DNA of 64,000 nucleotides from Octopus sinensis (lineage: Eukaryota), in NCBI RefSeq assembly GCF_006345805.1, contig NC_043007.1:14508001-14572000 (forward strand), read 5' to 3'. Shown here piece by piece: positions 1,595-59,216 of this stretch. The first letter of the stretch is position 1. Each line of letters begins with the position of its first letter. The notes beneath the pieces are model-generated. The model searched no databases. It worked only from the letters and a program-made list of their open reading frames with translations, and was not told the origin of the DNA. A program made the translations under genes and the position numbers.

Positions 1595-1655
1595 AGTATA
1601 TACATCTGTAGCAAACTTTTTCATCATTTCCCTCATACTCTCTGAAAAGTGGCCA
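1595..1655 (-). CDS. UBR2: UBR exon ([20 protein letters not shown])
   Basis: 61 nt, phase 2-0; gene continues past position 1. Confidence 0.85.
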
Positions 1656-8469: not shown

Positions 8470-8500
<31 letters not shown>

Positions 8501-20500: not shown

Positions 20501-23500
20501 GGCCTTCTTGACAATATGTTCTCAAATACAGGCATAAATATATCTCAAGAGACAAAGTGTCGTAAGTTTAATTAATGATGATGTGCCGGTGCCAGTGACA
20601 TGTAAAAAGCACCGTCCTAACATGGCAGATGCCAGCGCCACCTGACTGACGTCCGTGACATGTAAAAGCACCAACTAATTGTGGCCGTTTGCCAGCCTCC
20701 TCTGGCCCCTGTGCTGGTGGCACGTAAAAAACACCCACTACACTCATGGAGTGGTTGGCATTAGGAAGGGCATCCAGCTGGATAGAAACACTGCCAGATC
20801 AGACTGGAGCCTGGTGCAGCCTCCTGGCTTCCCAGACCCTGGTCGAACTGTCCAACCCATGCTAGCATGGAAAACGGACATTGAACGATGATGATGATGA
20901 TGATGGTGATGATGTAACAACTTATGAGAGACAACAATGGTAAGGATGACACGATAAAGTAAGCATCTGTTCAATCAAGTCTAACGTGAAACAAAACATA
21001 CCTGTGAAATCATCTCTGGAGAACATATACCAAATTTGTCCATATGTAGATAAAGCCCTGGCAAGAATTAAAAAAAGAGGTAATCAATTCAAAGGAATTA
21101 TGAAAAATATAAGATACAGATTATGATAGCAACAGTGTTTTTAATTTGGTTACAGAGAAAATCCCTTTTCTTCCATGTTTCACTATAAAGAATTTACTCA
21201 TATAATCACCAATCAAGTAATAGCTCTAATATTCATAATTAATTTGTTTTAAACCTCAAGGTCAAATTCCTTCGTACATAAGTTAAAGTGTGTAAAACAA
21301 ATTATATTGTGGAAAAAGCCATTTTAATCATTGAACAACAAACAAAACTGCTGAATTCACATTATATTTTAAATTTATTTCAAGAAGTGTCCAAACTTTC
21401 TTCATACAAATGCAACTTGGGTCAATGGCACAGTTCCTCTGTAACTCAGTTTAAATTTTAAATTAAAAATGAATCTAACAGCTTTGACGTTATTAAATGG
21501 TTAGAATGGTCCTTCCATGATATAACTGATTCACTTGCAAGAAATGCTTTCAGATCAAGTCACTTGCTAGACAAGTACAACTCCAAAAGTGTATAAAAAC
21601 TTTTGGATCTTACATGGTCTACATGTGTGTACACACACACACACACACACACAATCACATTAATGTATGTATATATTCTTTTACTCTTTTACTTGTTTCA
21701 GTCATTTGACTGTGGTCATGTTGGAGCACAGCTTTTAGTCGAGCAAATCGACACCAGGACTTATTCTTTGTAAGCCTAGTGCTTATTCTATCGGTCTCTT
21801 TTGCCGATCCGCTAAGTTACGGGGATGTAAACAGCAGCATCGGTTGTCAAGCGATGTTGGGGCGACAAACACAGACACACAAACATATATATATATAAAC
21901 GACAGGCTTCTTTCAGTTTCCGTCTACCAAATCCACTCACAAGGCTTTGGTCGGCCCAAGGCTATAGTAGAAGACACTTGCCCAAGGTGCCACGCAGTGG
22001 GACTGAACCCAGAACCATGTGGTTCGTAAGCAAGCTATATTAATTTTTGCTCAGATGATATGTAATTGTTTGTCCCAATAAATTCTTGACAGCAATTTTA
22101 CCAAAATTCATTTTGAGGAGAGAATAATTGTTTATTTCATAATTGAGATTAGTTAATTTGCTTTAGGAGTCAAGCATACTGTTCAATGATGTGATAGGAT
22201 ATGATTTAATTCAAACAGTGTATTATCAATGTATGAATATATATATCTAATGACAAATAAAAAAGATATTGACAGATGGAGTAGAAGTTTAGGTGTATTT
22301 CAAGAAGGAAAAAATAGACAAATAAATAAAACCATATTAAGTACCGGCAAAGAGGCGAATAACTGGTAAATGGATACTGACAGGCTGGCTAGCAACATCA
22401 TATTTTATACACTGGGCTACAATTCCTGCAACTGAAATAGATGAAAATATATTATCTTAAAGGGAAATGTTACAAAGAATTTTACACAAATCAGGTACTG
22501 ACTTTACATAAGACAAAATTTTCACATAAATTTCACTTATATGTAGGACAAAGTTTTAATTTATATGTAGGACAAGGTTTTAACTTATATGTAGGACAAG
22601 GTTTTAACTTATATGTAGGACAAGGTTTTAACTTATATGTAGGACAAGGTTTTAACTCATATGTAGGACAAGGTTTTAACTTATATGTAGGACAAGGTTT
22701 TAACTATATGTAGGACAAGGTTTTAACTTATATGTAGGACAAGGTTTTAACTTATATGTAGGACAAGGTTTTAACTTATATGTAGGACAAGGTTTTAACT
22801 TATATGTAGGACAAGGTTTTAACTTATATGTAGGACAAGGTTTTAACTTATATGTAGGACAAGGTTTTAACTTTATGTAGGACAAGGTTTTAACTTATAT
22901 GTAGGACAAGGTTTTAACTTATATGTAGGACAAGGTTTTAACTTATATGTAGGACAAGGTTTTAACTTATATGTAGGACAAGGTTTTAACTTATATGTAG
23001 GACAAGGTTTTAACTTATATGTAGGACAAGGTTTTAACTTATATGTAGAAGAGGGTTTCAATTTACACATAAGACAAGGCTCAAATCTAGAAATAACAAT
23101 GGTTGAATTTACCATCACAATCTTCCATTTTATGGGCATCCAGTTTATCTCTACATTGGTAAAGGGTACAAAGAGTAGATCTAAAACAGTCACTAAAAAC
23201 TGAAGCCTGAAAGTAGACAACAAGAGTTAGTGTGAAAGTATACAGTAGAAGGTGGAATGAAAGTTTACAGCATCACTTTACCTCTATTCAATCGAAATTA
23301 CCAAAATGTTTTCAGAGTTAGTGTTTTATAGATTTGCATTTCCTCAAAACCAAAATATACTAAAGATCAATACCCACATCACGGCCCTGCTTAGCAGTGT
23401 GGCTTACCTGAGTAACACTGGCCCAGCATATATAATTGTAAATATGTACAACAGGTAAATACTGTTTCACAGCAAGTAAGTAAGTAAGTACAATACAAAG

Positions 23501-26500
23501 GACTAAAGTACTTTGTAGGCCAAGAGTGATCAGTTCAAATCCTCACCTAGATCCAATGATTATGGAAGTCATCACAGCATGAAGAAAATTTTTTCCACAC
23601 TGCTAGACATAACTATATTCCTGTATGATCCATTTTACCTGACACAACAGCTATACACCCGTATGATACAGTTACAACTATAGCTGTTCACCTGTATAAT
23701 TCATGTTATAATAAACGACAACAATACATCTATATGAGCCATATTGCAACACATGACAATTATACACCTGAGTGTATCCATGTTACAATTCACGACAAAA
23801 ATACATTTGTATGATCCATGTTTGTTAGCCAATGTCACTATAAAAACTTCCTTTGGTCAAGAATGACCATGGGATTGCACCTAGTGGTTACCTTCCAAGG
23901 CACATGTTCAGGCAAGGTTGTTATTAGAAGACCAGCAGTCACCCATACATACAAGCCTCGCCTCTCCATGCCACCAATGTTATCCAAGGGAAAGGCTAAG
24001 ACCAATACAGCTTGGTATCAGTGACATCACAACTCATTTCTACAGCTGAGTGAACTGGAGCAATGTGAAAAAGCGTCTTGCTCAAGAACACAGCCCTGTC
24101 TGAGAATCGAACTCACTACCTCATGATTGTGAGCCCGACACTCTAACCACTGAGTCATGTGCCTTCACAATGTTACAATACATAACAACTATCTGACAGC
24201 TTATACACCAGCATGATCCAACAGGTCAGACCCAAGTCATAATATCTTAAGTAACCCACCATAAGAAAACAGGTGTAAAATAATTAAAAACAAAAACAAT
24301 TTTAATAAACTTCAAAGTAAAATTCTTACATTACTGCCGCACCAGTCCAAAAACAAAGCAATGTTATCTTGTAAACGAAGTTGAAGATTAAATGCACTTT
24401 CCCATTCTGGTTCTATTTCTAAATGTTGACCAGTTTTACGGGTGACAGAATCCATTCCCTGCAAAACAAGAAAAGAGAGATTGTAATGGAAACAATATTT
24501 AAAGAATTGTTGTTTGTTGATAGTTTGTTTGGTACCATCTAAATAGCTCTATTGATTTATCTCTTATAAGCCGACGAAGTGAGTTCACAGCTAGCAGGAC
24601 GGCCTGCTGTGCTAACCTTGGATCATAGAGTGACCTGCTGTTCTTGAGGAGACCTACTGAGTCAAGTACGTCAACATCAAAATAAAAATCAAATGGAAAT
24701 TGTAGTTAAGATACCTGTGCCGGTGACAGATAAAAAGCACCATCCGAACGTGGCAGATGCCAGCATCGCCTTGACTGGCGTCTGTGTCGGTGACACATAA
24801 AAGCACCAACCAATCGTGGCCATTTGCCAGCCTCCTCTGGCCCTCGTGCCGGTGGCATGTAAAAAGCATCCACTACACTCACGGAGTGGTTGGTGTTAGG
24901 AAGGGCATCCAGCTGTAGAAACACTGCCAGATCAGACTGGAGCCTGGTGCAGCCTCCTGGCTTCCCAGAACCCGGTCGAACCGTCCAACCCATGCTAGCA
25001 TGGAAAACGGATGTTAAACGATGATGATGATGATGATGAATTGGTATAACTCAGAAAAATCAAACACTGCAAATTTTATGTTTGTGCCAATTTATTGTAG
25101 ACAGAGTTTAGCATTTATTTCATCATTTGCTTTTTTTACCAGTTCAATCCCTTTACAAAATGAATGCACATGCCTTAACTATTTCTTCTTTTTTTACTGA
25201 ATGCTCGCTTGATTGAAGCCTTCATTGAAGACACATAGTTGTGTTAGATATTGCTTCAGCTGCGCCATGCTCCAGCATGGCCACAGCCAAATGACTGAAA
25301 CAAGTAAAAGAGTATAACTATTTTGCTGATGTTATTGAGCTGTGGAAGCTTCTTTTTGCTTACTAGACAGGTTCTTCAGTTTCAGAACTAACTTACTTGT
25401 ATGCTTATCAAAAGATCAAGCAATGCATTAAAGCCATTGCAGAAGCTTTTCTTCAATTGGTCTGTCCACTCTTCAGCACTTGGTTTACACAGCAATGCAT
25501 ATCTGAAATGTATGATAATGTATACAATATTAAAACTGCTAAATATATATATATAAAGGAATGAGCCCCAAACATAATTAAATGGAAGCTCCTTGAACAA
25601 CCAGGGACTCATATAAACAAGAGCAAACGATGTAAGCTTTAATTGGCAGAGAGCAAAAGAAGACTAAAAAAATTCACTTGACCTGGAGACCTTTTTAAAC
25701 TCCAAGAAAGAAGTATTCAGTCAATGCCCTCACCTAAAACATTCCCTACTTCAGACTTGGTATTCCCCATTTGTTCAGTAGGCCAGCCACAGCTCATTTG
25801 AATATTACCACAGCCAAAGCCAGTGTAAAAGGGATAACTCCATCCCATCACAGACAATTATTTTTTGTTTACAAAACCAACTGATTATTACATATTTCTT
25901 CCTCCAGTTGCAGAGAAGTTATGCACCTTCAGCTATATTTGAGTCTGATGAGTCGCCTATACTGCTAAACATTTTATAGGTGCAAAACCAACGGTCATTC
26001 TTTGGCAGTGCGTAACTTTTTAAATATAAGTTCCCACCCACATACGATATTAAATAAGTTCACAAGTCATATATCATAATATCAAATACAACTTATGAAA
26101 TGTAAACTAACAATCTGCATATTAGAAGTAAATAATGAATATAATTAAATTTTGTCAGATTTGTGATTTAAATATAAAATAACTCCAAAAAGTATTTCGT
26201 TTTTGGATTTGGTTTGCAAGATTCTTTATATGAGTCTGTGTGTTGAAGCATATTCTGTTGTGTTTGGGGAGAGTCATTTTCTTTTTGTGCCTTATAATGT
26301 AACACACTCACCGGTAAAATTTCAATTTATAGAAAAATAGGAAATAAGTGGAAATTTTACCGGTGAGTGTGTTACATTATAAGGCACAAAAAGAAAATGA
26401 CTCTCCCCAGACACAACAGAACTCAAACAAGGCTCCACTCTAGTGATTCAAGCACTCAAAATCCTCATCATTATCATCTATGTAAAGTAATTTAAGTGAT

Positions 26501-29500
26501 GAGGCTACAGTGAACTTACTGATTAATTCACATAAAATCCACCCCATGCATATTTACGTTTCACATATATTTAAGAATACTTGGATCCTTCTCCACAAAA
26601 TAATAGGGGCAAACTGGCATTGGATAGAGTGTCTTGCAGTTTTTGATCTAGCTCCCTGCACCAGGAGTTCAAACCCCACTGAGGTCAACTGTGTTTCTGA
26701 CCCCTTTTGGGGATCTATAAAGTACCTATTTCTTTACTACCCACAAGGGGCTAAACACAGAGGGGACAAACAAGGACAAATGGATTAATTCGATTACATC
26801 GACCCCAGTGCGTAACTGGTACTTAATTTATCGACCCTGAAAGGATGAAAGGCAAAGTCGACCTTGGCAGAATTTGAACTCAGAACGTAACAGCAGACGA
26901 AATACCTATTTCTTTATTACCCACAAGGGGCTAAACATAGAGGGGACAAACATGGACAGACATAGGTATTAAGTCGATTATATCGATCCCAGTGCTTAAC
27001 TGGTACTTAATTTATCGACCCTGAAAGGATGAAAGGCAAAGTTTTTTTTTTAAAGGCACAGTCGACCTCGGCTCAATTTGAACTCAGAACGTAACGGCAG
27101 ACGAAATACCATTAAGCATTTCGCCCAGCATGCTAACATTTCTGCCAGCTCGCCGCCTTGGGGATCTATAAGGTACCACCTCTTGACTGGGATTGACTCT
27201 CCCACAGGAAGAAAATGACTGATCAGACCTGGAGAAGGATGGGTTCTGCTAAATCCAGAAATGTCCAAAACACATCATGTCATGACAGTGCCCTTATACC
27301 TCTATCAAGAGTTAAGGATCCAATATGATATGGTTTCATTTATTGTCAGACCCCACAACAACTTTTATAAAATTAATTCACAAAAACTTCTGGGTTTTTT
27401 TTTTGCCTTTAATATTTTACAAACTTCTAATTTCCATATTTTGGAAGTTACCAAATCAAGTTAGCTTTATACACAAGAGCTACTTACTTTAGATCATATA
27501 GTATAAACCAAGCTCTCTTAAACGAGTTGCCATTTTCACTTCTTCCAAATGATAATTTTCCTCTCTCTGCAACACAAATGAAAACATTAAAAATTAACTC
27601 AAAATTAAACCATTAACTTTGATAAGTTAATCACAACATAAATATTAATCAAATTCAGTAACATAAACGAATATTAAACACCAATGCAATTAGTTAAAGA
27701 AACAGTATTAAATAAACAAAAGGTTACTGGATACTAGTTTTGAAAAGTGTTTGCAATGAAAGTTTTAAAAATGTACTTCAGGTAAAGGAGGGGTAAACAG
27801 GGTTTTTTTTTCAACCATTCAGTAGCAAAGAGAAATAATCCTATAGATTTGGATTTAAATTGAATAAGCCATTGGATTTAAACTGAATAATCCATTGGAT
27901 CTAAACTGAATAATCCATTGGATCTAAACTGAATAACCCAATGGATCTAAACTGAATAATCCAATTGATCTAAGCTGAATAATCCAATGGATCTAAACTG
28001 AATAATCCATTGGGTCTAAACTGAATAATCCAATGGATCTAAACTGAATAATCCATTGGATTTAAATTAAATAATCCATTGGATTTAAATTAAATAATCC
28101 ACTGGATTTAAATTGAATAATCCACTGGATTTAAACTGAATAATCCATTGGATTTAAATTGAATAATCCATTGGATCTAAACTGAATAATCCTATGGATT
28201 TAAAGAGTTAATGAATAAGAAAGCAAATGTGAAGTGAAAGTAAAACAACTTACTATTCTTTTTACTTTCACATTGTTTTAAGAAGGTCTGCAATATCACT
28301 CCCAACAGGTTGTGTTCTGTGATCAGGAAACGAGCCTATTACAAGGACAAAACAGTAGCATAATAATAATAGTTTTGTAAAGTTGTATAAGAATTAGAAT
28401 TCTTATTTAAACATAAACCTCAAATAACAAAACATAACTTTCAATTAATCACTAATAATTTGATTTCTTTTAGTCTGCTCCAGTCATGCGAGATAAGGTT
28501 CCACTTCACAGTTCAGTGATCACAAATGGTATCCAGCAATAAAAAAAAACTATTTCAATTAATTAATTCCTACAAATTCCACAATTTCTATAAATATCTT
28601 CGTAGAGATATTTACTGTAATAAAATTTAACAGGGAAATGGTATGGGATAAGAGGAGGACAGACTGCTAAATCTTGCTGGGTTTTGACTGTCCATCTTAC
28701 TGAGGAGGTTGATAACCTAAGGAGTTAAATACTGGAGGCTAATTTAATTCACTGTGCATTGTTCCTCTTTCAGCAATCAGTGACATTATGTCAAAGCTAG
28801 TAGTCTATGTAACGTTCTTGAATAAATTGTAACTGATACAAAGGAAATAAAGCCATAGCTATTATATAAACAAGTATTCAAAAAAAGATAATCAAATACA
28901 TTTTTAATTACACCAATTATTTTGTAATAGAGGTTATAATGGATTTCATTTTAAAAGTTCTCAGTTAATGAGGATGCTATTTACCAAAAGATAAACTTCA
29001 TCAAATAATATCTTTGACATTCTCTCATCATCGTTTAATGTCCGCTTTCCATGCTAGCATGGGTTGGACGATTTTGACTGAGGGCTGGCGAACCAGATGG
29101 CTGCACCAGGCTCCAATCTTGATCTGGCAGAGTTTCTACAGCTGGATGCCTTCCTAATGCCAACCACTCCGAGAGTGTAGTGGGTGCTTTTTACGTGCCA
29201 CTGGCACGGGGGCCAGTTAGGCGGTAGTGGCAACGACCTATATCGAATCTTTTTCCACATGCCACCAGCACAGCATATATTCACTTATTTGTATTTATGT
29301 CTGTTTTCCATACTTGCATGGGTTAGATAAATATGCTGTTAAGGCATTGTTTTACAGCCAAATGCTTTCTGTTACTAACCTTTACTTTTTTACAATTAGG
29401 GGATCTCATATTCCACTGGGCTTTGAAGGCACAAATGATTTGTTGATAGAATAACTGACAACAGAGGAGGCACAATGGCCCAGTGGTTAGGGCAGCGGAC

Positions 29501-29978
29501 TCACGGCCATAGGATCGCGGTTTCGATTCCCAGACCGGGCGTTGTGAGTGTTTATTGAGCGAAAACACCCAAAGCTCCACGAGGCTCCGGCAGGGGACGG
29601 TGGTGATCCCTGCTGTACTCTTTCACCACAACTTTCTCTCACTCTTACTTCCTGTTTCTGTTGTACCTGTATTTCAAAGGGCCGGCCTTGTCACTCTCTG
29701 TGTCACGCTGAATATCCCCGAGAACACGTGTCTGTGGAGTGCTCAGCCACTTACACGTTAATTTCACGAGCAGGCTGTTCTGTTGATCGGATCAACCGGA
29801 ACCCTCATCTTCGTAACCGACGGAGTGCTTCCACAACTGACAACAACAACAACACACACACTCAGAGTAATTCAGAATGAATGGTAAAAAAAACCCAAAA
29901 AACATACAGGTGAGTGCTGTAATTAATATATTGTACAATACAGATATTCTTTTTTTGTATCACTCATTTTGAATTACC

Positions 29979-30019
<41 letters not shown>

Positions 30020-33000
30020 GACAATAGTCTTTTTTCAGTTTCCATAAATCAAATCCTCTCACAAGGTTTTAGTCAGTTGAGGACTGTAACATGACACCTG
30101 CTCAAGGTGCCATGCAGTGAGGCTGAAACCCAAACCATGTGGTTGGGAAGTGAATTTCTTAACCACACACCCATGCCTGTGCCCTAAATATGCAATAACA
30201 CTGATAAGCAGTACTTGGATGTCTATTAAGGACTTCCATAATTATATTTTATTAATCTCTCTCTCTCTTTCTCACACCTGGTATACGTATGTGTGAAAGA
30301 CAGAGAGAGAATAACAAAATATAATAGTGAAAATATTTAACAGACACCCAAGTATTGCTCAACAATAGAAATACAAGATTAAAATAAGACTTTATAAATA
30401 CTTTAAAAGAGGCAATACTTTAAAAATGAAGACCATTTAAAGTTATTCACAGGAATGCCAGATATAACACAGCTCCAACAGAGTTTCTACTTAACAAAAA
30501 AAAAGTTTTTTTTAATGATAATTAATGAAGGGAAAGCTAATGAATCAGTGAATTGCATTTTTTTAATGCCTTAGACAGAGGGGGAAAGGCAACACCAACA
30601 GCCTTTCTCAGGGCTTCAGGGAATGGTGAAAAGAAAAGAGGAAGTTAATCAAAGGCCAAAGACTTGATACAATAATTGCAACTGAATGCATTCTACTGAA
30701 AACAGTGAACTGGCAACTCCAAGACTTCAGACATGCTGCTTATTTGAAGTTTAGCTCTGTGCAATTAAATTTCATGATTATTCCAGTAATGATGTTAAAT
30801 ATCGATCATCATCATCATCGTTTAACGTCTGCTTTCCATGCTGGCATGGGTTGGACGATTTGACTGAGGTCTGGCGAACCAGATGGCTGCACCAGGCTCC
30901 AATCTCATCTGGCAGAGTTTCTACAGCTGAATGCCCTTCCTAACGCCAACCATTCTAAAAGTATTGTGGGTGCTTTTATGTGCCACTGGCACGAGGGCCA
31001 ATCAGGTGGTACTGGCAACGGCCACGCTCAAATGGTGCTTTTTATGTGCCACCTGCACAGGAGCCAGTCCAGCAGCACTGGCAATGACCTCGGTCGAATG
31101 TTTTTTCAGTAAGGTGACGCAGGTAACGATCACGCTCGAATGGTGTTTTTTACGTGCCACCAGCATGGAGGCCAGCTTGTTTGCTCTGGCAACAATCATG
31201 CATAAAACAGAATTGTTATTTCCTACAAGTCATGTTATCTCAACAAACTTGACATGTCTCATCATAAAAATAGTTTCAAACATGACATTCCTCAAGAAAA
31301 AATAAATTGGTATATAAAATTGGTTTCTGAAGTTTAGGGAGTGGAAATATCTGATTTCTGCAGTAGAAGGGGTTAATAGCTCTTGCCACACTACAAAAAG
31401 CTTTTGTATAGCTGGTTCAAATTCTTGCATACTGATTGTTCGTAACTTTTGGGATTAAAATACCTGCAACATTTGCTGTGAATTCATTAATTCTTCTGCA
31501 AAACCCTGATCTGTTGCAAATAAGCAGCTCAAATGTCTTTTTCCAAACCTGTTTATCCATATCAGGAAGTAGGAATGTCAAGAAATATTCTGATGACATA
31601 ACGATACTTCTCATTGGTTACTATTTACCATCAGCCTATGGTAAGGTTCTATAAATAATAGTTTAATCCATTTTGAAATAAGAATTAACTTATAGTTGTC
31701 AAAATATTTTAACTTTTTATTGACAAACTAACATGACCTATTTCAGATGGTCAGATGTTTAATATGTGAGTGAGTGAGTGTGTGTGTACACACACACATA
31801 TATATATATATGCAGGGTGCGATGGATAAATTGTCACATTTTATATTTTTAATTTTGCACATGCACACCGTTTGTTTTTGATTTTGTTGACTACACAGTA
31901 TAGTAGGGTCAGTTGGGCACCATCTGTAAGAAAAACAGCATCCTGATGCAATTCCCTTTGCCATGCTGTAATGCTTGGCATTCATGCCAGAAGCTCCAAT
32001 ATGAACATTTCAGAGTGTTTGTGGTTCAATTTGAGGACATGTACTGAGAGTGAAAAAAAAAAAAAAAATCAAACCTCCCATCAACATCATGGTGTTTGGA
32101 GTGATCACTAGTGATGGCAACACTATGCCTCCATTCGCCTTCGCACAAGGCCTCACACTCAACATGGAAGCCTACATCAAGTGCCTGGTGGAGGTAGTAC
32201 TGCCCTAGGCCAAGAGGGTGGCTGCTGGAAGACCTTGTCTAGCAACAGGACTCTGCACCATGCCACACAAACAGGAGAGCCTAGTCATGGCTGTCAGACA
32301 ATTTCTGCGACCACATCAACCCTAACATCTGGCTGTCTAACTCGCTAGACTGCAACGCCTTGATTATTACATGTGGAGTGCAGTTGAGCATGAGATTAGC
32401 AAAACTCTTTGTAACACCAAAAATGAACTGAAGGCAAGGATTATGGAAGCATTCACCAACTTAAACAAGGAGACTGTCCAGAAGAGTTACAGGAGATTCA
32501 AAAGTTTTTTGGAGGCCGTGGTTGGAGCCAATGGTGATTTTATTGAATAAATTTACTCTTTAGTATTTCAAGATATTTTTATGTAATTTTGGTAAATAGA
32601 TCTTAAAATGAGATGTCAGTTATTTTTTATTTATGCGCAATTTAGACAACAGTTTATTCACTGCACCCTGTGTGTGTATGCTTCCCCTTTTTACTCTTCT
32701 ACTTGTTTCAGTTATTTGACTGTGGCCATGCTGGAGCACCGCCTTTAGTCGAGCACATCGACCCCAGGACTTACTCTTTGTAAGCCTAGTACTTATTCTT
32801 TCGGTTTCCTTTGCCGAACTGCTAAGTTACAGGGACGTAAACACACCAGCATCGGTTGTCAAGCGATCTTGGGGAGACAAACACAGACACACAAACATAT
32901 ACATACATATATACGATGAGCTTCTTTCAGTTTCCGTCTACCAAATCCACTCACAAGGCTTTGGTTGGCCCGAGGCTATAGTAGCCACACAGTGGGACTG

Positions 33001-36000
33001 AACCTGGAAACATGTAGTTCGTAAGCCAGCTACTTACCACACAGCTACTCTTATGCCTATATATATATATATCAATAGTAATGTATTGCAAAATGTCTCA
33101 AATTATACAACTACAAGAAACATTTCTCAGATCTTTTAATGATGACATCTGGCAGCATATATTTCTGTGATGGAAATGGAAATTAGTCTAAAAACATAGG
33201 TTTAGGTAATTCCTTTAGATATGGAACACTGCTTAAGAATGAAACAGCAGTAGAAACAACCTACCACCTTAGGAGCTGTGAAAATCTGAAGGGAATCAGA
33301 GATAATGGAAACCGATCGTAAATGATCATCCTTGATAAAGTTCTGCATAAGTTGAGCATAGTGCTAAAATAAGAAACAAGAAAATCAAAAGAAACGGTAA
33401 TAAAAAGGTTATTACATGGCAGTATTTTGCATTTACATAATCAATTACAACATATAACGTAAATAACAGCCATAAATATCAACTTTACTTGGTCATCCTA
33501 ACAATATATAAACAGTTCTATCAAATGAGTTTAACTAAATTTTAAAATAGGTGAAAAGAGTACGTCGTTAGTGATATTTTTTTCATAGTTGAAAACAATT
33601 AGATATAAACACGTTTAGCTAATTCAGTTTTTAACAATCTAAATTTCTTTTTGTGGATAAATGCTTCAGTAGGTTGTACTTTCAATAAAAAAAAAAAGAA
33701 TTTAACTGTAAAGCAATACAACTATTTAAAACTACTGCAGGGGAGTATATCAAATTTGATAAATTTCTGTTTCATGGTTATCAATTGTATTAACAATTAC
33801 AACAATTGCTATTAAATTAGCAAATATTTGCTTTAAAAACGATAAAACAAATAGTTATGCTATTATTATAAAGCAATTATTCATGCAACAATAGCATTTG
33901 GTGGTGCTGCCAAGGACAAACAATTTCTTTAAAAGAATTTCTATTGTTTCAGTTGTTTTGTTACTTATTTGGCTCAGAAAATTATAAGAAAGTATATTTT
34001 TTTTAAAATAAATTTTAAGAAGTTTAACAAAAGCAAAAATGGAAATAAAAAAAAAATTTCTATATATGGAATATTCTCAGAGAAGCTTTGCAATACTGCA
34101 TTTTAATTTTGATTTCATTTCTTTTTTTCTCCAGCATGTAGTTAAGCAAGCGCTAAAGATTGTTTAAAACAAGTAATAATTCAACCATTGAAACTTCCAG
34201 AAAACAATGAAATCTTCATTAAAATATTACTGTAAATCAATGTCACATGTTAATTAATTTAGATAAAGATAAGGCCAATTAGTGATATGCCTTTTTTCCC
34301 ATCATTTTTAAAATGAAATGAAAAAGAACGGGGAGAAATGTTTGTAATAAGCAGAACACACTTCAGCTTTGTACACTTTCATTCAACTAAAAGATTTATG
34401 AAAACTGTCTTGTAATATTTGTTTAACCTGGTGTAATCTTTTTTTTTTTTTAATGGTAGCTAACCATGTAGACCAATCAGCAAACAAGTATTGCAACCAG
34501 TGCAATAGTGTGCAAACTATAAACAATATAGACACCAGGATTAAAACCAAGATACCTGCAATTCCTAAACGATTGCTTTCTCCGCTTAACAGTCAGTTGC
34601 AGCACCAATTTAAAGTTAGTTTTTAAGAAATGCCAGGAAACACTTAAAAGAAAATAAACTATATTGCATTACATAATTTGTTGCATTCAGCTACAAATGA
34701 AACCTGTCTGAACACCAAGTTTATTTGAAAATTAAATATCTAACCTAGAATATCAATCTCATTCTATTTGTCAATATTGCTGAATCCTCCAAGAATCCAA
34801 CCAAGAATTTAAAGGATACCAAAAAGTAACATGTCATTTAAGTTCCTTGATAGGATCAGCACAATCGCTAGATGGACCTAATTATACCTACTTCTATACT
34901 AGTGTGCAGGTTAATTAATTTCATGTAACATCAAGTCTAACTGAGGCACAATAAAGTTGATGTTTGGCTGTGATTTATGCTCAGGTGTTTGAAATTGTTT
35001 ATGCAATTGCACAGTGAAACTGCCATGTGCTTTCCTGATTAACATACCAGACTGGTCAGAGTAAAGATTTGGACAGAAAGGGACACGACGGACACTTCAT
35101 GGTCGTGGTCATCTTGTAAAAAGTCTTCCATCAGTTGAGAATATTTCTGTGGAAATATAGCACAGTAACATTTCATTGACCTAAACACGGCCAACCAGAC
35201 AGTAATTTGAAGAGAACAAAAAGGGGGAAAGAGAATAACTGTATTGATTTGTCAGGAAAGGATATCAAAGTGGAAAAGAAATTGAGGGACACCAATGACT
35301 TGGCTGGAATTTAGAACAGTTTTTATTATTAAAAAATATAAAATAAAAAATAAAATGGAACAGATCAATATACAATTATATATAGTTTAAAATTCAGATC
35401 AGGGAGAAATGAGCCAATATATGTGTGTCTACACCAAATTTAGAGGAATTATATAATACAATATTGTAGTGAACATTAAAAACTAATGCTAGCAATTTTT
35501 AATAGATTTAGAGCTGCCTAATTTTTAATAGACTCTCAGACTTTTGGCAATAGTTTTTTATACACATTCTTGTTCTGTCTATTGTTAAAAAATACTGTAT
35601 TCTGGTACAAAATAATGAAGTTAGTAGTTTATTACTGGTAGAGTTGATAAACTAGAAATTAATTAAAAGCAACAGAAATTAATTTTAAAATGTGATTGGG
35701 GAAATGTTCCTTCTTCAAGATTTTCTCAGTATTTATATCTTTTACGACAGACTCATTCTATGTGATGCTCAGGTTTTTGCTATGAATGTTCTGTTATACA
35801 ACTTCAGCACAGCATCACATTCACTTAACTTGATTCACCAACTGAGACACTAACTCCTTAGTGTATAAACCAGCCATATCTGGCCCAGATATTCTACATG
35901 TTTTATATTCAAACTGGCCAGGTCCAGCCTCTCACACCTAACCTACAGTGACATTCTAACGATAAACAATCACATCATTGAAACCTCAAAGCTATAAGAT

Positions 36001-36847
36001 AATGCAGGATTAATTCAAAACAATTTGAGCGAAAGAGTATTACATTTAACAGAGTAATCTGAACACAAAAGGGTTAAGTATTATTTCACACTGAACATTC
36101 CCCTATTAACTAAAAGTTAACAAAGAATGAATTTTCTTTAAACTGAGATTTTGCAGTAAGAAATAATTGTGATCTACCAATTACTACACACTTCATCTTA
36201 AGTTTTCTTTATCCTAAAATGGGAGTACAATAAATTTAATCTTGATTTTTTTCTTTTCTTTTTACAACAATGTTTTTAATGTGTCTTGAACCTTTACTAA
36301 TTTTATCATAATAATTATCACCATCATCTTCATCATCTGCCTTCCATACTGGCAAGGATGGGACTAATTATAAATTTACTAAATAAGCAACTAATTAAAC
36401 TAAGCAGTTTTGTAAAGTATCTTTCCTGTCCTGTATTTGTAAATAATTGAGTAAACAACATAATCATATGAGGAATAGTTTAATATATTTCAGCACTATC
36501 CCCATTAAAGATGCTGGTATTTCTACTAAACTTAAAGAAAATCCCTGCTAAAAATATCTAAGGAGTCATAGTGGGGAAAAAAAAGTAAGGCTCTCACATT
36601 TACTCTATAAAAAATCAACCACTTAACCTGGTATTTTTTATCTTTTACTTGTTTCAGTCATTAGACTGTGGCCATGCTGGGGCACCACCTTGAAAAACTT
36701 TTAGTTAAATGAATCAACCCCAGTTCTTTTTTTTCACCCCTTTTTAAGCCTGGTACTTGTTCTATCAATCTCTTTTGCTGAACTGCGAAGTTACAGGAAC
36801 ATAACCACACTGAAACTGGTTGTCAAGCAGTGGTGGAGGTGGTGACA

Positions 36848-36882
<35 letters not shown>

Positions 36883-39800
36883 GGGCTTCTTTCTGTTTCC
36901 ATCTACAAAATCCATTCATAAGGTTTTGATCGGCCCAAGGTTATAGTAAAAGACACTTACCCAAGGTGCCACACAGTGAGACCGAACCGAGAACCATGCA
37001 GTTGGAAAACAAGCTTCTTACCACAAAGACACACCCAGCATTATTATTATTATTATTATGAATTTTGTAAACGAATGTTCAAATTAGGCAACTAGATTCA
37101 CCAGCATTAGGTAAAAAAATATTAAGGCCACTATTAATTTATCAATCAGGTAATCTCCCAACAATTTATGACAAATAGTTTTTATTATTAATATCCTTTT
37201 CTACTCTAGGCACAAGGCCCGAAATTTTTGGGGAGGGGGGCCAGTCTTCAGTCAAATCGTCCAACCCATGCTAGCATGGAAAGCAGACGTTAAACGATGA
37301 TGATGATATGCCCAACCAGCCATATCTTAACTAATTTTGCATCCTTTCATATAATTTCCTTTTTCACAAACAGAAAGGGATGCTTATCTCATTTCTCTCT
37401 ACAGATCATCTCTATTCAATGATGCTGACTCATGTAGCCTCATTCTCTCTGCACATGCATTATACAACCTATCTTTTGTGGAGAGAGAGAGAGAGAGGGG
37501 GGGGGTATTCTGTTGCTGGAAGTATTTCCTGAATTTCTTCCAACTGGCTGGGTTTTTTATTTTCCTTCTTTACTCCAATTGCAAAACTTTTACTATAACC
37601 ACACCCATCAGTAACCAAGCTACCTTAGGTAACAGAAACTGCCTAGTATTATCCTGCAGTTTCAATATTGCTTGTAGCAAAACCTGAATGATAAAAGTCA
37701 GCAGTGTAAAGTTATCAAAGGATCTATGACAACAAAACAGAAATAGGTAGACTCTTTTAAAACTTATGTGAGAATGAACATAAAAGGCACTGAGTGATCT
37801 AGTGATATGGGCACTGGAATGTAAATGAGTGAGGATAGCTGAAGGTTAACAAGGTGCCCTTAATTCGTAGTAGAAGACACCAGTGTAGGAGTAAGGAGGC
37901 TAGAGAAGCGTTGGAAGTTCAGGTTAGATCTGAGAAAGTGAGATCCTACAAATGAGATTACACAATAAATATAAAGTAAAGCTTTATTACTGATATTTAA
38001 AGCAGGTTTCTCATGGGAAGAAGGTTTGCTGTAAAAGGTGAAACAGAGGAGGTAAACTGTCGTGTTTAATAGCAATTTGTCATCTTCTCAAACCTCTTAG
38101 TAAAAAGCACTATTTCAGCGTGATCGCTACCTGCACTGCCTTACTGGCACCTGAAAAAACATTCGGACGAGGTCATTGCCAGTGCCGCTGGACTGGCTCC
38201 TGTGCAGGTGGCACATAAAAAGCACCATTTGAGCGTGGCCGTTGCCAGTACCACCTGACTGGCCCTCGTGCCGGTGACACGTAAAAGCACCCACTACACC
38301 CTCAGAGTGGTTGGCGTTAGGAAGGGCATCCAGCTATAGAAACTCTGCCAGATGAGATTGGAGTTTGGTGCAGCCATCTGGTTTGCCAGTCTTCAGTCAA
38401 ATCGTCCAACCCATGCTAGCATGGAAAGCGGACGTTAAATGATGATGATGATGATCTTGTGTTTCTGCCAAACCATAAATCTAAACTAGTAACCATCAAA
38501 TACTGACACACAATCTGTACCAATACCAACACAACTTAGATGTATCTACAGACTAGACTATAGTAGCACTTTATTATTTTCAACTTACTTTTGTTAACTC
38601 TATGTAAACATACTCTCTATTCCATTCCCTAAAACATTGGTATATGAAATTATCATTCATACCACACAATCTTCTCTAAATTATATTTATTAACATTTTG
38701 ATCATCTCTACACTTGTTCTGTAAGCATTTTGATTTTAATTCACCTTTCTAAATCTTAGCTGCATTTTTACTGAGACAGTAAACAATATAAATATTGATC
38801 ACATCAATGTGATGGTTACTTAAACCTATTTCTTTACTACCCACAAGGGGCTAAACACAGGGAGGACAAACAAGGACAGACAAACGAATTAAGTCGATTA
38901 TATCGACCCCAGTGCACAACAGGTACTTATTTAATTGACCCTGAAAGGATGAAAGGCAAAGTCGACCTCGGCGGAATTTGAACTCAGAACATTAGCGGCA
39001 GACGAAATACCGCTAAGCATTTCGCCCGGCGCCCTAACAATTCTGCCAGCTCGCCGCCTTAAACTAGATCGCTGCGGGCAGGATGGTTACTTAAACCTAT
39101 TATATCTATCACTGATCTAGGTCTAACTTTTAAATGCTTAAACTTGTTTATATTCTGAAAATAATTTTTTAAAAAAATAAAACCTACAGAAATTACTATG
39201 AACAATACTACTAGATACTACATCAACAAATTGTAAAGATTTAGAGAAATTTTGAATTTGTTCATTAAAACAAGATACTGTGAAGTCTTAAGCCTTTTCC
39301 TAATTTAGTTAAAATACATTCACTCGTGTTGTCATTCTAGGGTTGAAAAGCTCTTGAGCAGGGGTTCCCAAATTAGAATTGACACCAATTTAATAATTCT
39401 GGATTTATACATTTTTGTTTTTAATTATAATTTTAACAATTCTGAAGTTAAGAAAATTTGAATGCGGCCAATTTTGTGAAAAAAAATACAAATTATATAT
39501 TTTTTTCTTTCTACCATATTAGATTTAATGATCAGTATTGTATAATTCTTAATTACTGTGTTACAAATGGGGAAGTTAGGAAGACTAGTATATAAATGAC
39601 ATAACACTGCAATGTACTGTGTATTCTTTATTGTTATTTGAATAATGTCTAAGCCTTTTGTTACCATATTTCTGTTGGAATATGCTACTTTTGTTTCAAC
39701 TGATTTCGAAAATGATGAAGAATTTAGTAAAATAACTCATTATTAAGCTAGTGTTTGGAACACAAATTAACATGAAAATTTGATGAAAGGTCTGTTGTGT

Positions 39801-42800
39801 CTGGGGAGAGTCATTTTCTTTTTGTGCCTTATAATTTAACACACTCACCGGTAAAATTTTAGGAAAATAAAGATGAAAAATAAGTGGAAATTTTACCAGT
39901 GAGTGTGTTACATAAGGCACTGAAAGAAAATTATTCTCCCCAGACACAACAGAATATGCTTCAACACACAAACTCATATAAAGAATCTTGCAAACCAAAT
40001 CCAAAAACGAAATATTGATGAAAGGTATTAAGTGGGAAGTTTGTATCACAGAACAAAGGTTTCTCAAGTGGACTGGTAGCAAAAGGGTTAAAAACAGCAT
40101 TTAAAAAATTCCTTTTTGTTGGTTGTTTTATGAAGGTAGAAGTGTAAATTCAAATTACTGAACTAAACAGAATTGCAGAATAAATTTACTTTGCAAAAAT
40201 TGCAAGGGGTAAATAAATAAGTAAATAAAAAATGGTTGGGAACTCCTGCTCTACAGATTTAGAGAATTATATATATATAAAAAAAAAAGTGTTTTGATGT
40301 CAGAGAATGAAGAATTTCAACAGTCAACTCGAAGTTTCACATGGTTCTTAAACTGTACAATAAAAATATGAAACTTTTTCTATTTAAAAAAAAAAAAATG
40401 TAACATATTGCAATAAACTTATTTATAGCCCTATTATAATAATACTTTTAAAAAATTACAATGGAATAGTACTGGATTTGGCAATTCTGGGATTCAGATT
40501 AACACCAGAAGAAAAATTACAACTTTTTAAGAAAAGTTGGTGATTGATAATCATTAAAAAAAACTGGAATAATATTCAATTATAATTTTAGGTACTGTAT
40601 GCTCTAATCTAATAATAATTAGATATTATCACATGTTTAATTCTATAATCAGGTACCATAAACTATAACCTAGAAACTGCTGCTATAAAATAAAACCAAT
40701 TCATTGCAAACAGTTCATTCGTTTACTTGGTAATGTGTTATATACCATGTAGTTATTTTATATTTTGATCAACAGGCTTTCAGTTAAAGTCACTGTCTCA
40801 TGAGATTTTGCTATATAAATTCCAACAAGTTTTACATTCTTATGTAATAATAGATGTGTAAACCTTGACACAGCAATAAAAACAGCAATAAAAAGCTATG
40901 TTCTGAACAGGGTCAGTAGAGTATAAGAGACTAAAATTAAAATTTAGGAGTAAGATTTATGGAACACTAAACTATCATTTGGATAACATTGTCTATAAAT
41001 AGAGATAATTAAATGACAGCAATAGATCATAAAAAAACAATGTTGATTCTTAAACTGGGATAGTGGATAATTTACTGAGGACACTGTGGTAATAAATCTA
41101 GCATTTTTATTATTCGTGATTAGAAAACAAACAAAAAGCAAAATTATTAAAAAAAATTTTCCTATTGATTAAAAAAAAAAATGTTCTTACCTCAGTAAAC
41201 ATCACTCCAAACTGACGTTTACATTCCTGATCCCTCAGAACCCTTCAAAGAAAATAAACCAAATAATGGTTTGAGCACTGAACGTTCAAGCAGTGGTTAT
41301 ATAAAACACAAAACATCAGTAAAAGTACATCATTAAGAATATGACACCATGTTTTTAATATTGCAGTCTATCAACTCATTAAATAGTCACAAAGTTCGTT
41401 AAATGATGTATTTATCATCATCATCATTGTTCGACCGTGGTCGAGACAATGGAATTTACCATGCTACGCCAGACTTCATGGTCCATCATGGCATTACGGA
41501 GGTCCTGTTGCTGGATGCCTGTATCCCTGGAGATTACATCAGGGTAGGAGAGTGTGCGCCCTCTGGTATTGTGAGTAGATGGCTTCCAGAGGAGAAGAGT
41601 AGAAATTGCCTCGTTTTCAGCTCTACAACAATGTCCAGCAAACTGGACTCTTCTACCTTTCACAAGAGATGACACAGGTGGTAGTTTCCCATATAATTGT
41701 ATTTTTTTTTTTTTTGCATGAGAGGCGGTTGGATGGAACCTACACTTGCCTCCTTATGAGAGCTCAAAATCTCTCGTGGAAGCGTCATCCAACCAAAGTG
41801 CAAATATGTGGGAAATATGTATTTATAATGTGATTTGATAGTCAAAAATTACTGATACCAAGTGTGTATAAACATATACACACACTGAATAAGTTGCTAA
41901 AATTTTAAATGTAAATATCAGAAAAAATATGAGAATCACTTTGAGACATATACAAAAGTGGGTGCTACTTTGGTAAGCAATCTACATAGCCAACATGGTC
42001 TACAAGAGTCAAATTCTACTTTAGGATGTGATCTACAAGTTTCATTTATTCATTATGACTTAAATAAAACATTCTTACATATTTATACATTTATTTAAAA
42101 AAATTAAAATGAAGCAGATTTGAAACAAGTTTACTAATTTTATGGGTGAATCGAATAAACGAACGAATCAAATGAATGGGCAAATCAAACAAACATCAGC
42201 TAGAAAAGTAAAAAGTAGATAATTAAAATTTTAATACATTTAGTATTTAAAAGAAATTAGAATAAAGCAAATTTAAACAAGTTTGCTAATTTTATTGTTA
42301 ATACATTTATTATTAAAGTTTATGATTTAATACATCTTTATATATAAAATTCAAGTTGTGTGTGTGAGACTGTCTCCTCCGCTTTAGATTCCTAACTACT
42401 CTTACATTTTACGGTGCAGTTTAACCAAAAGCGGGCATCTTATAGTCGTCATTCATATTGAGCCCTTCTGGGTATTAGCGCACGTCTATGATGAGTCTAT
42501 GATTTAAAAAAAAATTTACCATCATTTTTCCGCATTTTTAATGATTTTTGCTTGGGTTATATAAGGGAAGTAACTCTCTAAAAATGCTTATATAGTTGTT
42601 TCCCTTACAAACCTGAGCAACGCCAGGTGATACGGCTAGTTTATTAAAAAGAAATTAGAAAGAAGCAAATCTGACACAAGTTTACTAATTTTATCAGTGA
42701 ATCAAACAAATGTCAGGTGTTTTCCTTGTTCTTACTAAGTATAACTTTTCTCGTTGTAGATCACAATCTAAAGTGTATTTCACATACCAAAGCAGTTTCA

Positions 42801-45800
42801 TATGTAGACCACATACCCCAAAGTAGCACCCATATGTGTATATGTAAGCATATACCTACCCACTCATCAATAGCTGATGACTTTGTATTCTGGCAACTAG
42901 AAAAGAGAAAGAAAATTATTATACATTAATATAACTATTTGAAAGATTCATTCTACATTTACTGTTTCACTTACATTATTCTAGAACATAACTGGAACAG
43001 CCTATTTGCTGGGAAAACTGTTTTTATGTTGAGATATTAATTTACTGATAAGCACCGAAAGAATAGAATTTTGTCTTTTGTATAAAACTAGGGAACTGGA
43101 GCTAGCAGAGTTAATGGTATTGCTCAAGGAAGGTGGTGAGCTGGCTGAATCATTAGCACACCGGGCGAAATGCTTAGCAGTATTTCATCTGCTGCTACGT
43201 TCCAAGTTCAAATTCCGCCGAGATTGTTTTGCCTTTCATCCTTTCAGAGTCGATTAAATAAGTACCAGTTACGCACTGGGGTCAATGTAATCGACTTAAT
43301 CTGTTTGTCTGTCCTTGTTTGTCCTCTCTGTGTTTAGCCCCTTGTGGGTAGTAAAGAAATAGGTATCTTTGGTTGGCCCGAGGCTATAGTCAAAGACACT
43401 TGCCCAAGGTGCCAGGCAGTGGGACTGAACCCAGAACCATGTGGTTCGTAAGCAAGCTACTTATCACACAGCCACTCCTATGCCCATAGGAAAAAAAATT
43501 TTCATTAAAAGATAACATTACTTTTAACATCATCTTACATATTAGAACATCTACAATATAGGTGTATAGTGTGGATTACATATGTAAAAATGTGTGTATT
43601 GAGCAACCTAATGATCTTAGATGGAATTGTCATCTGCGTAGTCTAGATCCTTGACAGAAAAGTTGTGCCCAACTCCCAGCTCCCCTTCAGGGTTGGCGAA
43701 AGCGATGTGGTGGACAATGAAAAACCTGGCTGATGACAGTCAAGGCTGATCTGGAACCCAACCTAGGCCTCCATATCTACAGCTTTCACCGCTGGAATAA
43801 GGAATGGTTGGAGATCATGCGGTCGTTAGCCTCAAATCGCCAGGTCCAGTCGGCGCTTGTGAGAGATGCAGCATTGAGGATGAATGAAGCCAGCTCAAAC
43901 CACCCCAGGTGAATGCTGTCTCAAGACAAGAAGACTTAGATGGAACTACATTATGATTCCAAGTGGAATAAAATTTTTAAAAAAAAGCTGTAAGGATGTG
44001 TCAAGTGTAATAAAGAAAACATTACTAATTAATCAACTTACTTTTCCACAGCTTGGTATCGGCCAGAATCAGACGCTCCATCAGTGAACCACCTTCAGCA
44101 GGCTGCATGGCTAACTTACAAAATAAATATCGCAGCCCATCTACAGAGAAATAAACAAAAGATGAAAAATAGTTCATGACAATAACAATAAAAATAATTT
44201 TCAAAAAAGAGACCGTAAGTCTATATTTAAAATTTAAATGTTAAAATTCAAAATAAAGATTCTTTGTAAATAACCTTTTCTGAAATGTACATCGACTACC
44301 CTCAATCGACTTCCGGTACATCGACTACCCTCAATCATTATTCTTCATTCATTATATCCGCCTCCATTCACTCACTGCCCCTCACTCTCCCCATGCACTC
44401 TTGTAACCTCTATACTCAACCAGACCCACCATTCTTCTGCCCTCACTCACTCCTACCTTTGAGGATCCATCCTGACACCTAATCACCTTTATTTTTATCT
44501 CTTTCCAGCTCCATCCCATTTACTTTTATCCTCTCTTCTATCATGTGAGTGGCCATGTTGCTCAACAGCAAGAAACCTGTTCTTTTATGGCCCCTATTTT
44601 CATATCTCAATCTCTCATCTCCTACCATAAAGCCATTCCCTTTCTATTATAGCTCCAATCAGTCAAAGAGGATCTCAGTCTTGCAATCTGAAAGGCAACC
44701 TCACTAGTACTGGTGCTATATAAAAAAGCATCTGGTACAGTCTGTAAAGTGGCTGGTGTAAGGAAGGGCACCCAGCCACAGAAGCCATGCCAAAACAGAC
44801 AATGGAGCACAATGCAGTCCTCAGATCTGTTGGATCCTAACAAACAGTCCAACCTATGCTAACATGGAAGCTGGACATAAAAACAGAAATGCTGATAGTG
44901 ACAGATAATAATCTCAACTGTTACTATGTTTTTTTTCTTTTAACTGACAAAAACCTCAACAAAAAAGTCACAGAACTCAAAAAGTATCAAACCCAGACAT
45001 GATTTAACTTCATATTAGTGAAATCATCATTGTTTAATGTCTGCTTTCCATGCTAGCATGGGTTGGACGATTTTGACTGAGGGCTGGCGAACCAGATGGC
45101 TGCACCAGACTCCAATCTTGATCTGGCAGAGTTTCTACAGCTTGATGCCCTTCCTAACGCCAACCACTCTGAGTGTAGTGGCTGCTTTTTACATGCCACC
45201 GGCACGGGGGCCAGTCAGGCTGTACTGGCAACGACCTATATCAAAATCTTTTTACACATGCCACCGGTACAGGTGCCAGTAAGGCGACACTGGTAAAGAT
45301 CACGCTCGAATGGTGCCTTTTACGTGCCACAGACATGGAAGCCAGTTAGCCGCTCTGATGGTGCTCTTGGCACCCTACTATAATGCTAAATAAATAACAT
45401 AAAACATCTACCACATTGACAACAAGAGGATAAATATGACATTGGTGTTTATACCATACCTGATTTAGAAATTATATACTGCAACCATTGAATAGATTTT
45501 AGCGCAAACTTCTGATGGGAAACAACAGTTGTATGCATAACCTGAACCTTGAGAGGCTTGGAGCTCCCTCGAGATGACATTTGCTACAAAAGAAAGGGCC
45601 AAAGAAGTCGGTTATTTCAGCAAATAGTTAAGCTTGTTCTCAATATAAGAATAATAACTGTAGAGACGAAAAAATTCCATAAAATTTGCTGAGCAATTAC
45701 TGGCATACACCGCCAGAGTTTGAAACCTGCCACAGGCAGTAGAAAGTAAAGTTGGTGATGCCCTTTATTGGACTCGTCTCATCTTTTGTTTCCTTTCTTT

Positions 45801-48429: not shown

Positions 48430-48466
<37 letters not shown>

Positions 48467-53721: not shown

Positions 53722-53752
<31 letters not shown>

Positions 53753-54794
53753 GGGAGGAATTACAACTGCGTTTCGTGGTCTGCTACCACAACAGCTCCT
53801 TTATAGGATCCAGTTAGCTCAAGACGTCATCAGGAGGAACCACGTCTGGTTTCGGCCCCTACTCCTCTACCGTTTTGACGTGGCGGCCCCACCTCCACTT
53901 TCGGAGGTGTCTTCAGCTCTGGTGTTGGGTGCATGTCTTCTTCCTTCTATTCCCTGGCTTCTTCGATGTGTCGTCAGCAAGTGTCAGCTGGTGACTGACT
54001 GACTTGTCAAATTTTTTCCCTTTAAATACCTGCCGCTAGGCTCCAGCAGGCAGCCCCAGCATCACACATTTTCTGCTTTAAAAGTTAATCATAGAAAAAA
54101 AAACCCTTTACCATCCCTGACTCTGACACAACAACCAGTTTTGTCTGAAAGCAGAAGAGATGCAATAGTAGCCAAGCAGATGAAGACTGCATTCATATGC
54201 AATCACTGGCTTTCAGATGTGATTTCAGTAGGACACTGAAAGACATCCTTTTGCATTTATTTGAGTGTATGTTTATGTGAAAGAGACAGACAGACAGACA
54301 GAAGAAAGAAATGAAAATGGTAGGAACAGAAGAGAAAAAAATGAGAAGAAAGGGGGGAAGAACAAGGAGAAGACAGAAAAGCAGAAGAGGGAGGAGTAAA
54401 GCAGAGAGTGGGAGGGAGAAAAGCAAAGAGAGGGAGGGAGAAAAGCAGAGAGAGGGAGGTAGAAAAGCAGAGAGAGGGAGGGAGAAAAGCAGAGAGAGGG
54501 AGGGAGAAAAGCAGAGAGAGAGAGGGAGAAAAGCAGAGAGAGAGAGAGGGAGAAAAGCAGTGATAGAGATAGAGAGGGAGAAAAGCAGAGAGAGAGGGGG
54601 GAGAAAAGCAGAGAGAGAGAGAAAGAAAAGTGAGAGAGGGAGGGAGAAAAGCAGAGAGAGAGGGAGGGAGAAAAGCAGAGAGAGAGGGAGGGAGAAAAGC
54701 AGAGAGAGAGGGAGGGAGAAAAGCAGAGAGAGAGGGAGGGAGAAAAGCAGAGAGATAGGGAGGGAGAAAAGCAGAGAGATAGAGAGGGAGAAAA

Positions 54795-54833
<39 letters not shown>

Positions 54834-59169: not shown

Positions 59170-59216
<47 letters not shown>

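Follow-up and report, generated by a model that had tools for sequence, protein, structure and literature searches.

The UBR1/UBR2-type gene of Octopus sinensis poses a question about two similar 99-nt exons, which lie one after the other at a point where the protein needs only one: whether both are used, whether they replace each other, and whether they descend from the same duplication as the alternative exons of vertebrate UBR2. The gene was analyzed in a window of 64,000 nt, the whole stretch of DNA studied here (contig NC_043007.1, positions 14,508,001 to 14,572,000), and its features are listed in Table 1. The window holds residues about 20-1311 of the host protein, the remainder lying beyond the window start, and an O. 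sinensis protein model agrees with it exactly at 1288 of its first 1311 residues, in 36 segments. The matching O. sinensis proteins carry a UBR box, a ClpS-like domain, a winged helix and PRT6_C in that order, which is also the order in yeast Ubr1 (PDB 7MEX/7MEY) and the human protein (9WBV/9WBW). By this domain order the host protein is classed as a UBR1/UBR2-type N-degron E3, and N-degron-dependent ubiquitin ligase activity would be expected from its family. Elsewhere in the gene, Octopus models differ by two residues at protein position about 170 (near 55034) and by six residues at about 1055 (near 6053); these two small splice shifts likely come from the use of an alternative donor in one case and of an alternative acceptor in the other.

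Table 1. Features of the UBR1/UBR2-type locus, in positions of the window
Feature	Position	Strand	Description
UBR1/UBR2-type E3 ligase host gene	1595..59732	(-)	36 mapped coding exons and exon B
Constitutive exon 5' of the pair	41242-41191	(-)	phase-0 end at 41191
Exon A	35146-35048	(-)	99 nt, phase 0-0, residues 389-421 of the A isoform
Intron between A and B	33364..35047	(-)	1684 nt
Exon B	33363-33265	(-)	99 nt, phase 0-0
Constitutive exon 3' of the pair	28335-28254	(-)	phase-0 start at 28335
Possible RNA stem, 5' arm	35151..35189 (approximate)	(-)	covers the branch/pyrimidine tract of exon A; lead only
Possible RNA stem, 3' arm	35001..35036 (approximate)	(-)	just past the donor of exon A; lead only

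Both exons are preceded by AG, followed by GT and free of stops, and their translations are the two peptides of the original prediction, whose description of two intact 99-nt phase-0 exons holds for coordinates, borders and reading frames alike. The alignment of A and B shows identity at 16 of 33 residues and, in the DNA, at 55 of 99 bases. The identical bases number 18, 27 and 10 of 33 at the first, second and third codon positions, respectively, a pattern that points to conservation at the protein level with saturated third positions. Exon A as a query against the whole genome matched only the A and B sites, with no third copy, and when the protein was cut into overlapping 30-residue pieces and compared with the window by tblastn, no further exon of the UBR gene proved to be duplicated. 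When each peptide was searched alone against 177,635 PDB sequences, the only matches were residues 395-427 of human UBR2 and UBR1. A Johanson-Blizzard syndrome missense change at UBR1 residue 427 was looked for in the literature searched and not found, and no argument here relies on it. Since A and B are adjacent, equal in length and phase and placed between the same flanking exons, they form a tandem homologous exon pair; the pair is real, and chance is excluded.

Gene models and assembled contigs reveal that each exon is spliced in alone, as A-only and B-only annotated isoforms exist in Octopus and in other molluscs. The protein cluster of O. sinensis and O. vulgaris contains nine models, five with A only, four with B only and none with both, and the model peptides for A and B are identical to those of the window. 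Among the 12 full-length Logan proteins listed, 11 contain A, one contains B alone and none contains both. The Logan contigs measure 5.5-7.1 kb and, being too short for the introns, would represent spliced transcripts. The B-only protein (P0049) is full length, comes from a contig of 6090 bases and has the same residues on both sides of the segment as the A-bearing P0045. The B-only models and this contig indicate that neither exon is left unused, and the claim that A and B are alternatives is supported. A search of sequencing runs with exon B listed no RNA run containing it, a result given no weight here. The molluscan records listed with the segment (n = 86, the oyster cluster being represented by 15 of its 97 members) comprise 49 with A only, 23 with B only and 14 with A and B joined. 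Among the joined records are a Sepia model and the RefSeq models from Mercenaria, Ostrea and Biomphalaria. Judged from these models and contigs, A and B are likely spliced in one at a time, A likely being the common form and B a minor or restricted form, and the exclusion may leak, given the 14 joined records. The molluscan A and B isoforms are already contained in automatic annotation, unremarked.

The joined records might also be taken at face value, with A near-constitutive, B an optional cassette and A+B transcripts a genuine third product, in frame and repeating 33 residues within the scaffold, perhaps as a means of damping the ligase; there would then be no true exclusivity. Such an arrangement would agree with the 14 of 86 joined records and with the dominance of A in the Logan contigs listed (11 of 12); the lengths of A and B are multiples of three, so that double inclusion escapes decay, and the long intron between them is without a steric block. 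We nevertheless consider it improbable. A cassette does not account well for the 23 of 86 records with B only, one of them the transcript-sized contig of P0049, nor for the lack of A+B among the nine Octopus models and the 12 full-length Logan proteins listed; gene predictors easily join tandem exons, and a hairpin repeated within a solenoid would likely misfold. One-at-a-time use remains the likelier reading.

Exons A and B are both present in 13 genera of four molluscan classes, namely a chiton (Liolophura), gastropods (Patella, Gigantopelta, Babylonia, Aplysia and Biomphalaria), bivalves (Pinctada, Mercenaria, Mizuhopecten, Ostrea and Magallana) and cephalopods (Octopus and Sepia). Their order is A then B wherever it is visible, that is, in the window, in a bivalve-like metagenome contig (L022), where they are 554 nt apart, and in all 14 joined models. 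An origin of the pair in cephalopods only is ruled out by the chiton, gastropod and bivalve copies; the original prediction, in offering a convergent duplication in cephalopods as one of its two readings, was therefore too narrow. Across the 13 genera the mean identity is 66.5% for A, 60.6% for B, 74.6% for the upstream stretch and 60.9% for the downstream stretch. The identity of B is similar to that of its constitutive neighbors, which argues that B is under ordinary constraint. The claim of long-standing selection on both exons is supported by their being open and conserved throughout these genera.

The two exons differ at a few diagnostic sites. A-type exons have His16 (20 of 21), Asp or Glu17 (21 of 21) and Ser32 (21 of 21), so that the loop at exon positions 15-17 reads D-H-D/E, while B-type exons have Arg16 (16 of 16), Ser, Pro or Thr17 and mainly Thr32. 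Invertebrates with a single exon have His16 in all 19 cases, with mainly Ser17 and Thr32. At position 23, which falls within a predicted helix, Leu is found in 21 of 21 A exons, whereas B has Asp in octopods and L/D/V/H/M/K/F/I among molluscs. These unusual residues at position 23, together with the greater variation of B among cephalopods (octopus-cuttlefish identity is 97% for A, 82% for B and 92-94% for the flanks), would be expected if B were a decaying copy without a role. However, B is open, 33 residues long and splice-competent in all four classes throughout the age of molluscs, rather than frameshifted in relatives of the octopus; its octopus-chiton identity of 64% equals that of A, and it has an invariant Arg16 of its own. 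Decay is thus already largely refuted as an explanation of B, and we regard it as highly improbable.

The alternative version of this exon that the original prediction attributed to vertebrate UBR2 was confirmed by several sources. In the parts available of the tandem exon substitution catalogue of Martinez Gomez et al. (2021, PMC8373072), human UBR2 is event 232 and its date is Gnathostomata; the DDHER-type exon lies at chr6 42617240-338 and the DDHDR-type exon at 42617409-507, with 70 nt between them, and the isoform pair is flagged in the proteomics column. That date comes from a catalogue which, in the same parts, looked beyond chordates only for events common to tunicates or lancelets. 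The accessible portion of a CHO-cell preprint (10.1101/863175) describes the Ubr2 event as two 33-residue exons with 19 conserved residues; the event also appears in the supplement of PMC9741552, likewise dated to Gnathostomata and with empty tissue columns in the portion seen, and the UBR2 gene id stands in the list of Lam et al. (2021, PMC7954323) as far as that list was available. Myotis isoforms include both the DDHER and DDHDR types, and in two vertebrate contigs (L017 and L020) the DDHER type comes first and the DDHDR type second, 71 and 73 nt apart. The D-D-H-D-R motif is also present in the bivalve-like B exon at L022:2459-2557, which matches the second exon of vertebrate UBR2 at all five residues and shows that this motif recurs easily.

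Outside jawed-vertebrate UBR2 and molluscs, one version of the segment was the rule. UBR1 DNA (L006 and L023) contains a single copy between the flanking exons, and among the isoforms listed there is one version each in lampreys (15), starfish, sea urchins, a crinoid, Ptychodera, horseshoe crabs, corals and the UBR1 of bichir and lizard; yeast Ubr1 likewise has one version. The single-version status of echinoderms, hemichordates and chelicerates is taken from annotated isoforms rather than DNA. The absence from cyclostomes is a soft one, because what was sampled from lampreys may be the orthologue of UBR1. The sample is without a named annelid, brachiopod, amphioxus or tunicate sequence. Coral-like loci (L029-L033) have the same outer exon borders with an extra intron inside the exon, which means that either bilaterians fused the 99-nt unit or corals split it; arthropod-like loci are without these borders.

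The molluscan and vertebrate pairs have in common a 33-residue exon, phase-0 borders, two alternative homologous versions and the place corresponding to residues 395-427. In sequence the second vertebrate exon is the look-alike of A, with which it shares Asp15, an acidic residue at 17 and Ser32, and the first is that of B, the shared features being Arg16, a small residue at 17 and Thr32. However, the order of the look-alikes is reversed, as molluscs have A then B and vertebrates the B-like DDHER exon before the A-like DDHDR exon, so the look-alikes do not stand in the same order in the two groups. The intron between the copies also differs (70-73 nt in vertebrates, 554-1684 nt in molluscs); the vertebrate pair is found in UBR2 and not in UBR1, whereas molluscs have one UBR1/2-type locus for the exon; and Arg16 is present in 13 of 13 vertebrate copies, both UBR2 exons included, but only on B in molluscs. 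Two independent duplications, which we hold to be probable, are favored by the order, by the size of the intron, by the date published for the vertebrate event and by the finding of single copies elsewhere; the molluscan pair would thus go back to the ancestor of molluscs and likely have an origin separate from that of jawed-vertebrate UBR2.

Exon trees were built from 70 exons in a first run and from 43 exons in a second run, which was also used for constrained tests; the smaller set omitted near-duplicates and long branches, including the Aplysia, Biomphalaria and oyster B exons, and the sea urchin and Ptychodera exons, which have a one-residue insertion, were omitted from both. A and B form separate groups across mollusc classes in both trees (43-exon support 96/92 for B and 63/35 for A). 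The second vertebrate exon was placed among vertebrates with 70 exons (88/91) and beside A with 43 exons (70/86). The trees thus recover A and B as old separate groups, while the placement of the second vertebrate exon is unstable. Among the constrained trees (43 exons), independent origins gave lnL -1306.9 (AU p = 0.62), B grouped with all vertebrates -1313.1 (p = 0.27), an ancient pair matched by sequence -1316.4 (p = 0.12) and an ancient pair matched by position -1318.1 (p = 0.14), the AU test on 33 columns rejecting none of the four. Residue counts elsewhere were taken from 67 of 146 representatives (ungapped match of at least 25 bits, vertebrates removed), of which 37 have Ser32, 12 an acidic residue at position 17 and one Arg16. 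Because Ser32 and acidic 17 are common elsewhere, the A-like traits are cheap to gain; Arg16, being found in only one of 67, keeps the link between B and the vertebrate exons alive.

A single ancient bilaterian duplication, in which A and B would each have an orthologue in the vertebrate UBR2 pair and one copy would have been lost elsewhere, was the other reading of the original prediction, and it turns out to be the less likely one. The residues shared at positions 15, 17 and 32 by A and the DDHDR exon, and at 16, 17 and 32 by B and the DDHER exon, would then be inherited, in line with the exon borders, which are the same, the neighboring position of A and the DDHDR exon in the 43-exon tree and the AU values of 0.12-0.14. 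Pairs of such an age exist: those of ATE1 and OGDH, homologous alternative exons of molluscs and vertebrates, are each read as one bilaterian event (PMC8373072, section 17, and the available part of PMC7969005), and ATE1 belongs to the Arg/N-degron pathway. For the UBR exons, unlike these two, order and distribution favor two events. One duplication requires either a reversal of exon order or, if the exons are matched by position, a poor sequence fit; it also requires that Arg16 was regained in the DDHDR exon and that second copies were lost separately in UBR1, ambulacrarians, arthropods and a priapulid. Its likelihood is about 10 log units lower, and the published date is Gnathostomata, from a limited search beyond chordates (PMC8373072, parts available). 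We therefore see little chance for it.

An intermediate history would place a His16/Arg16 pair in the bilaterian ancestor, with both copies kept in molluscs, the His copy in most invertebrates and the Arg copy in vertebrates, where it was duplicated again in UBR2. It would account for the distribution of Arg16 (all 16 B exons and all 13 vertebrate copies, compared with one of 67 other representatives), and its AU value is 0.27. The fast-evolving B exons of Aplysia and Biomphalaria fall among vertebrates in the 70-exon tree, which would fit this history, but that grouping is a long-branch one. Moreover, the scheme is based on one site and demands many losses, its likelihood is 6.5 log units lower, and Arg16 turns up again in an arthropod-like representative (P0144), so that the change is a recurrent one. 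We consider this history unlikely as well, and two duplications remain the preferred account.

How one exon is chosen over the other probably differs between the lineages. A donor-to-branch distance under about 50 nt blocks the joint use of neighboring exons (PMC7969005, part available), and the vertebrate intron of 70-73 nt would fit such steric exclusion. In octopus the AG-free zone before B is 117 nt (intron of 1684 nt) and in the bivalve contig L022 it is 46 nt (intron of 554 nt). As the octopus zone is only 117 nt, there is no sign of a branch point near the donor of A, and with long introns and short AG-free zones steric exclusion is unlikely in molluscs; the molluscan UBR intron thus differs from that of OGDH, which has the short donor-to-branch distance in the portion of PMC7969005 available. 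Since A and B are both in frame, decay is not available as an exclusion mechanism either.

RNA structure gave a weak lead. Pairing between the 45 nt before A and the 50 nt that follow it has an energy of -23.4 kcal/mol; no other of the 37 exons of the gene has flanks that pair as strongly (the next being -13.8). Of 2000 shuffles, 42 were as strong, and the stem is present in the centroid fold. If real, it would mask the splice signals of A and admit B. The fold of the whole region around A was no better than that of shuffles (z = 0.15), no such stem was found at the bivalve L022 locus (p = 0.25; region fold z = 0.96), and competing RNA pairings with the intron after B were no better than shuffles. 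In a comparison of octopus and bivalve L022 for conserved intronic elements, only the exons matched, other matches being at the chance level.

What the swap would change in the protein was judged with the help of a coral homologue modeled by AlphaFold2 (835 residues, 64 sequences). The model has a pLDDT of 88-97 over the exon and aligns with yeast Ubr1 over 695 residues (Z = 23.1, rmsd 4.4). In it the exon starts as a helix, and the D-D-H loop leads from there to a short helix and then to another helix. Profile alignment places it at about residues 546-579 of yeast Ubr1, between UBR-box2 and the winged helix, and places the yeast acceptor-ubiquitin loop (678-681) at octopus residues 522-525. 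This loop lies in scaffold region C and is required for chain elongation in yeast (10.1101/2021.04.12.439291, part available). The exon is thus about 100 residues N-terminal to the acceptor-ubiquitin loop and outside the degron pockets and the RING. It is well conserved, as 18 of 256 33-residue windows in the first 1330 residues of the protein score higher, and Tyr2, Phe9, Asp12, His14, Ser19 and Gln26 form a core kept in A and B. The differences are in the loop at 15-17, which changes from acidic (D-H-D/E) to basic (Y/L/S-R-S), and at 23 and 32. The swap would most likely alter a binding surface on scaffold region C, not the degron pockets or the RING, and would likely fine-tune the ligase. 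An atlas search with the B region gave no usable match, and none of 22 pattern matches in viral contigs was confirmed.

Taken together, we think it rather likely that A and B are tandem copies forming a pair present in four molluscan classes, used one at a time, independent of the vertebrate UBR2 pair and acting by retuning a loop of the scaffold. The phase-0 borders would be old, as the outer borders are the same in coral, mollusc and vertebrate DNA; such borders allow duplication without frameshift, so the exon could be copied twice. A would serve as the common form and B as the minor or restricted one. Double use would likely be blocked sterically in vertebrates by the 70-73-nt intron, and molluscs, with introns of 554 and 1684 nt, would likely rely on a looser, regulated choice. 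Both copies would retain the helix-loop-helix core, and the loop difference would change the candidate binding surface. A further step is tentative and seems to us somewhat doubtful: that the exon, duplicated twice, split both times into an acidic-17/Ser32 form and a small-17/Arg16/Thr32 form and is a recurrent, splicing-set switch. If so, this switch in the Arg/N-degron pathway, placed in the same region of the scaffold as the acceptor-ubiquitin loop, would be a candidate control of chain elongation or partner choice.

Tandem alternative exons are a well-known class and the human event is catalogued, so the octopus pair is not a new kind of system. Chordates, echinoderms and molluscs each have a separate duplication in ACOX1 (PMC8373072, section 17); this example and, as far as available, the human/fly cases of PMC9741552 are similar in that the same exon or region was duplicated in separate lineages and kept as alternatives; the UBR case differs in its host, an N-degron E3 ligase rather than a metabolic enzyme or ion channel. 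The molluscan UBR pair was not found in the examined portions of PMC8373072 and PMC9741552, nor was a paper on the pair or on the function of either isoform, or a functional study of the human UBR2 isoforms, found in the literature searched, which excludes subscription journals. A second, probably independent, pair kept in the four mollusc classes sampled suggests that the swap is worth keeping and points to exon positions 15-17, 23 and 32 as important. It also gives a case for asking why certain symmetric exons duplicate repeatedly, and how exclusion works when the intron is short in one of the lineages but long in the other. ATE1, which acts upstream of UBR1/2, has tandem alternative exons common to octopus and vertebrates (PMC8373072, section 17), so that two steps in the Arg/N-degron pathway carry such switches.

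Several repeats lie in the introns of the host gene. Inverted dispersed repeats (357 bp, 89%) at 30804-31153 and 38100-38456 flank both exons A and B, and similar elements are dispersed through the introns of the gene. Directly past the downstream exon is a tandem repeat with 15.5 copies of a 23-bp unit (27849-28204). Additionally, long intronic tandem arrays, a direct repeat (about 250 bp) and an array rich in AG, located at 9028-11250, 51661-52116 and 54463-55026, give rise to spurious open frames.
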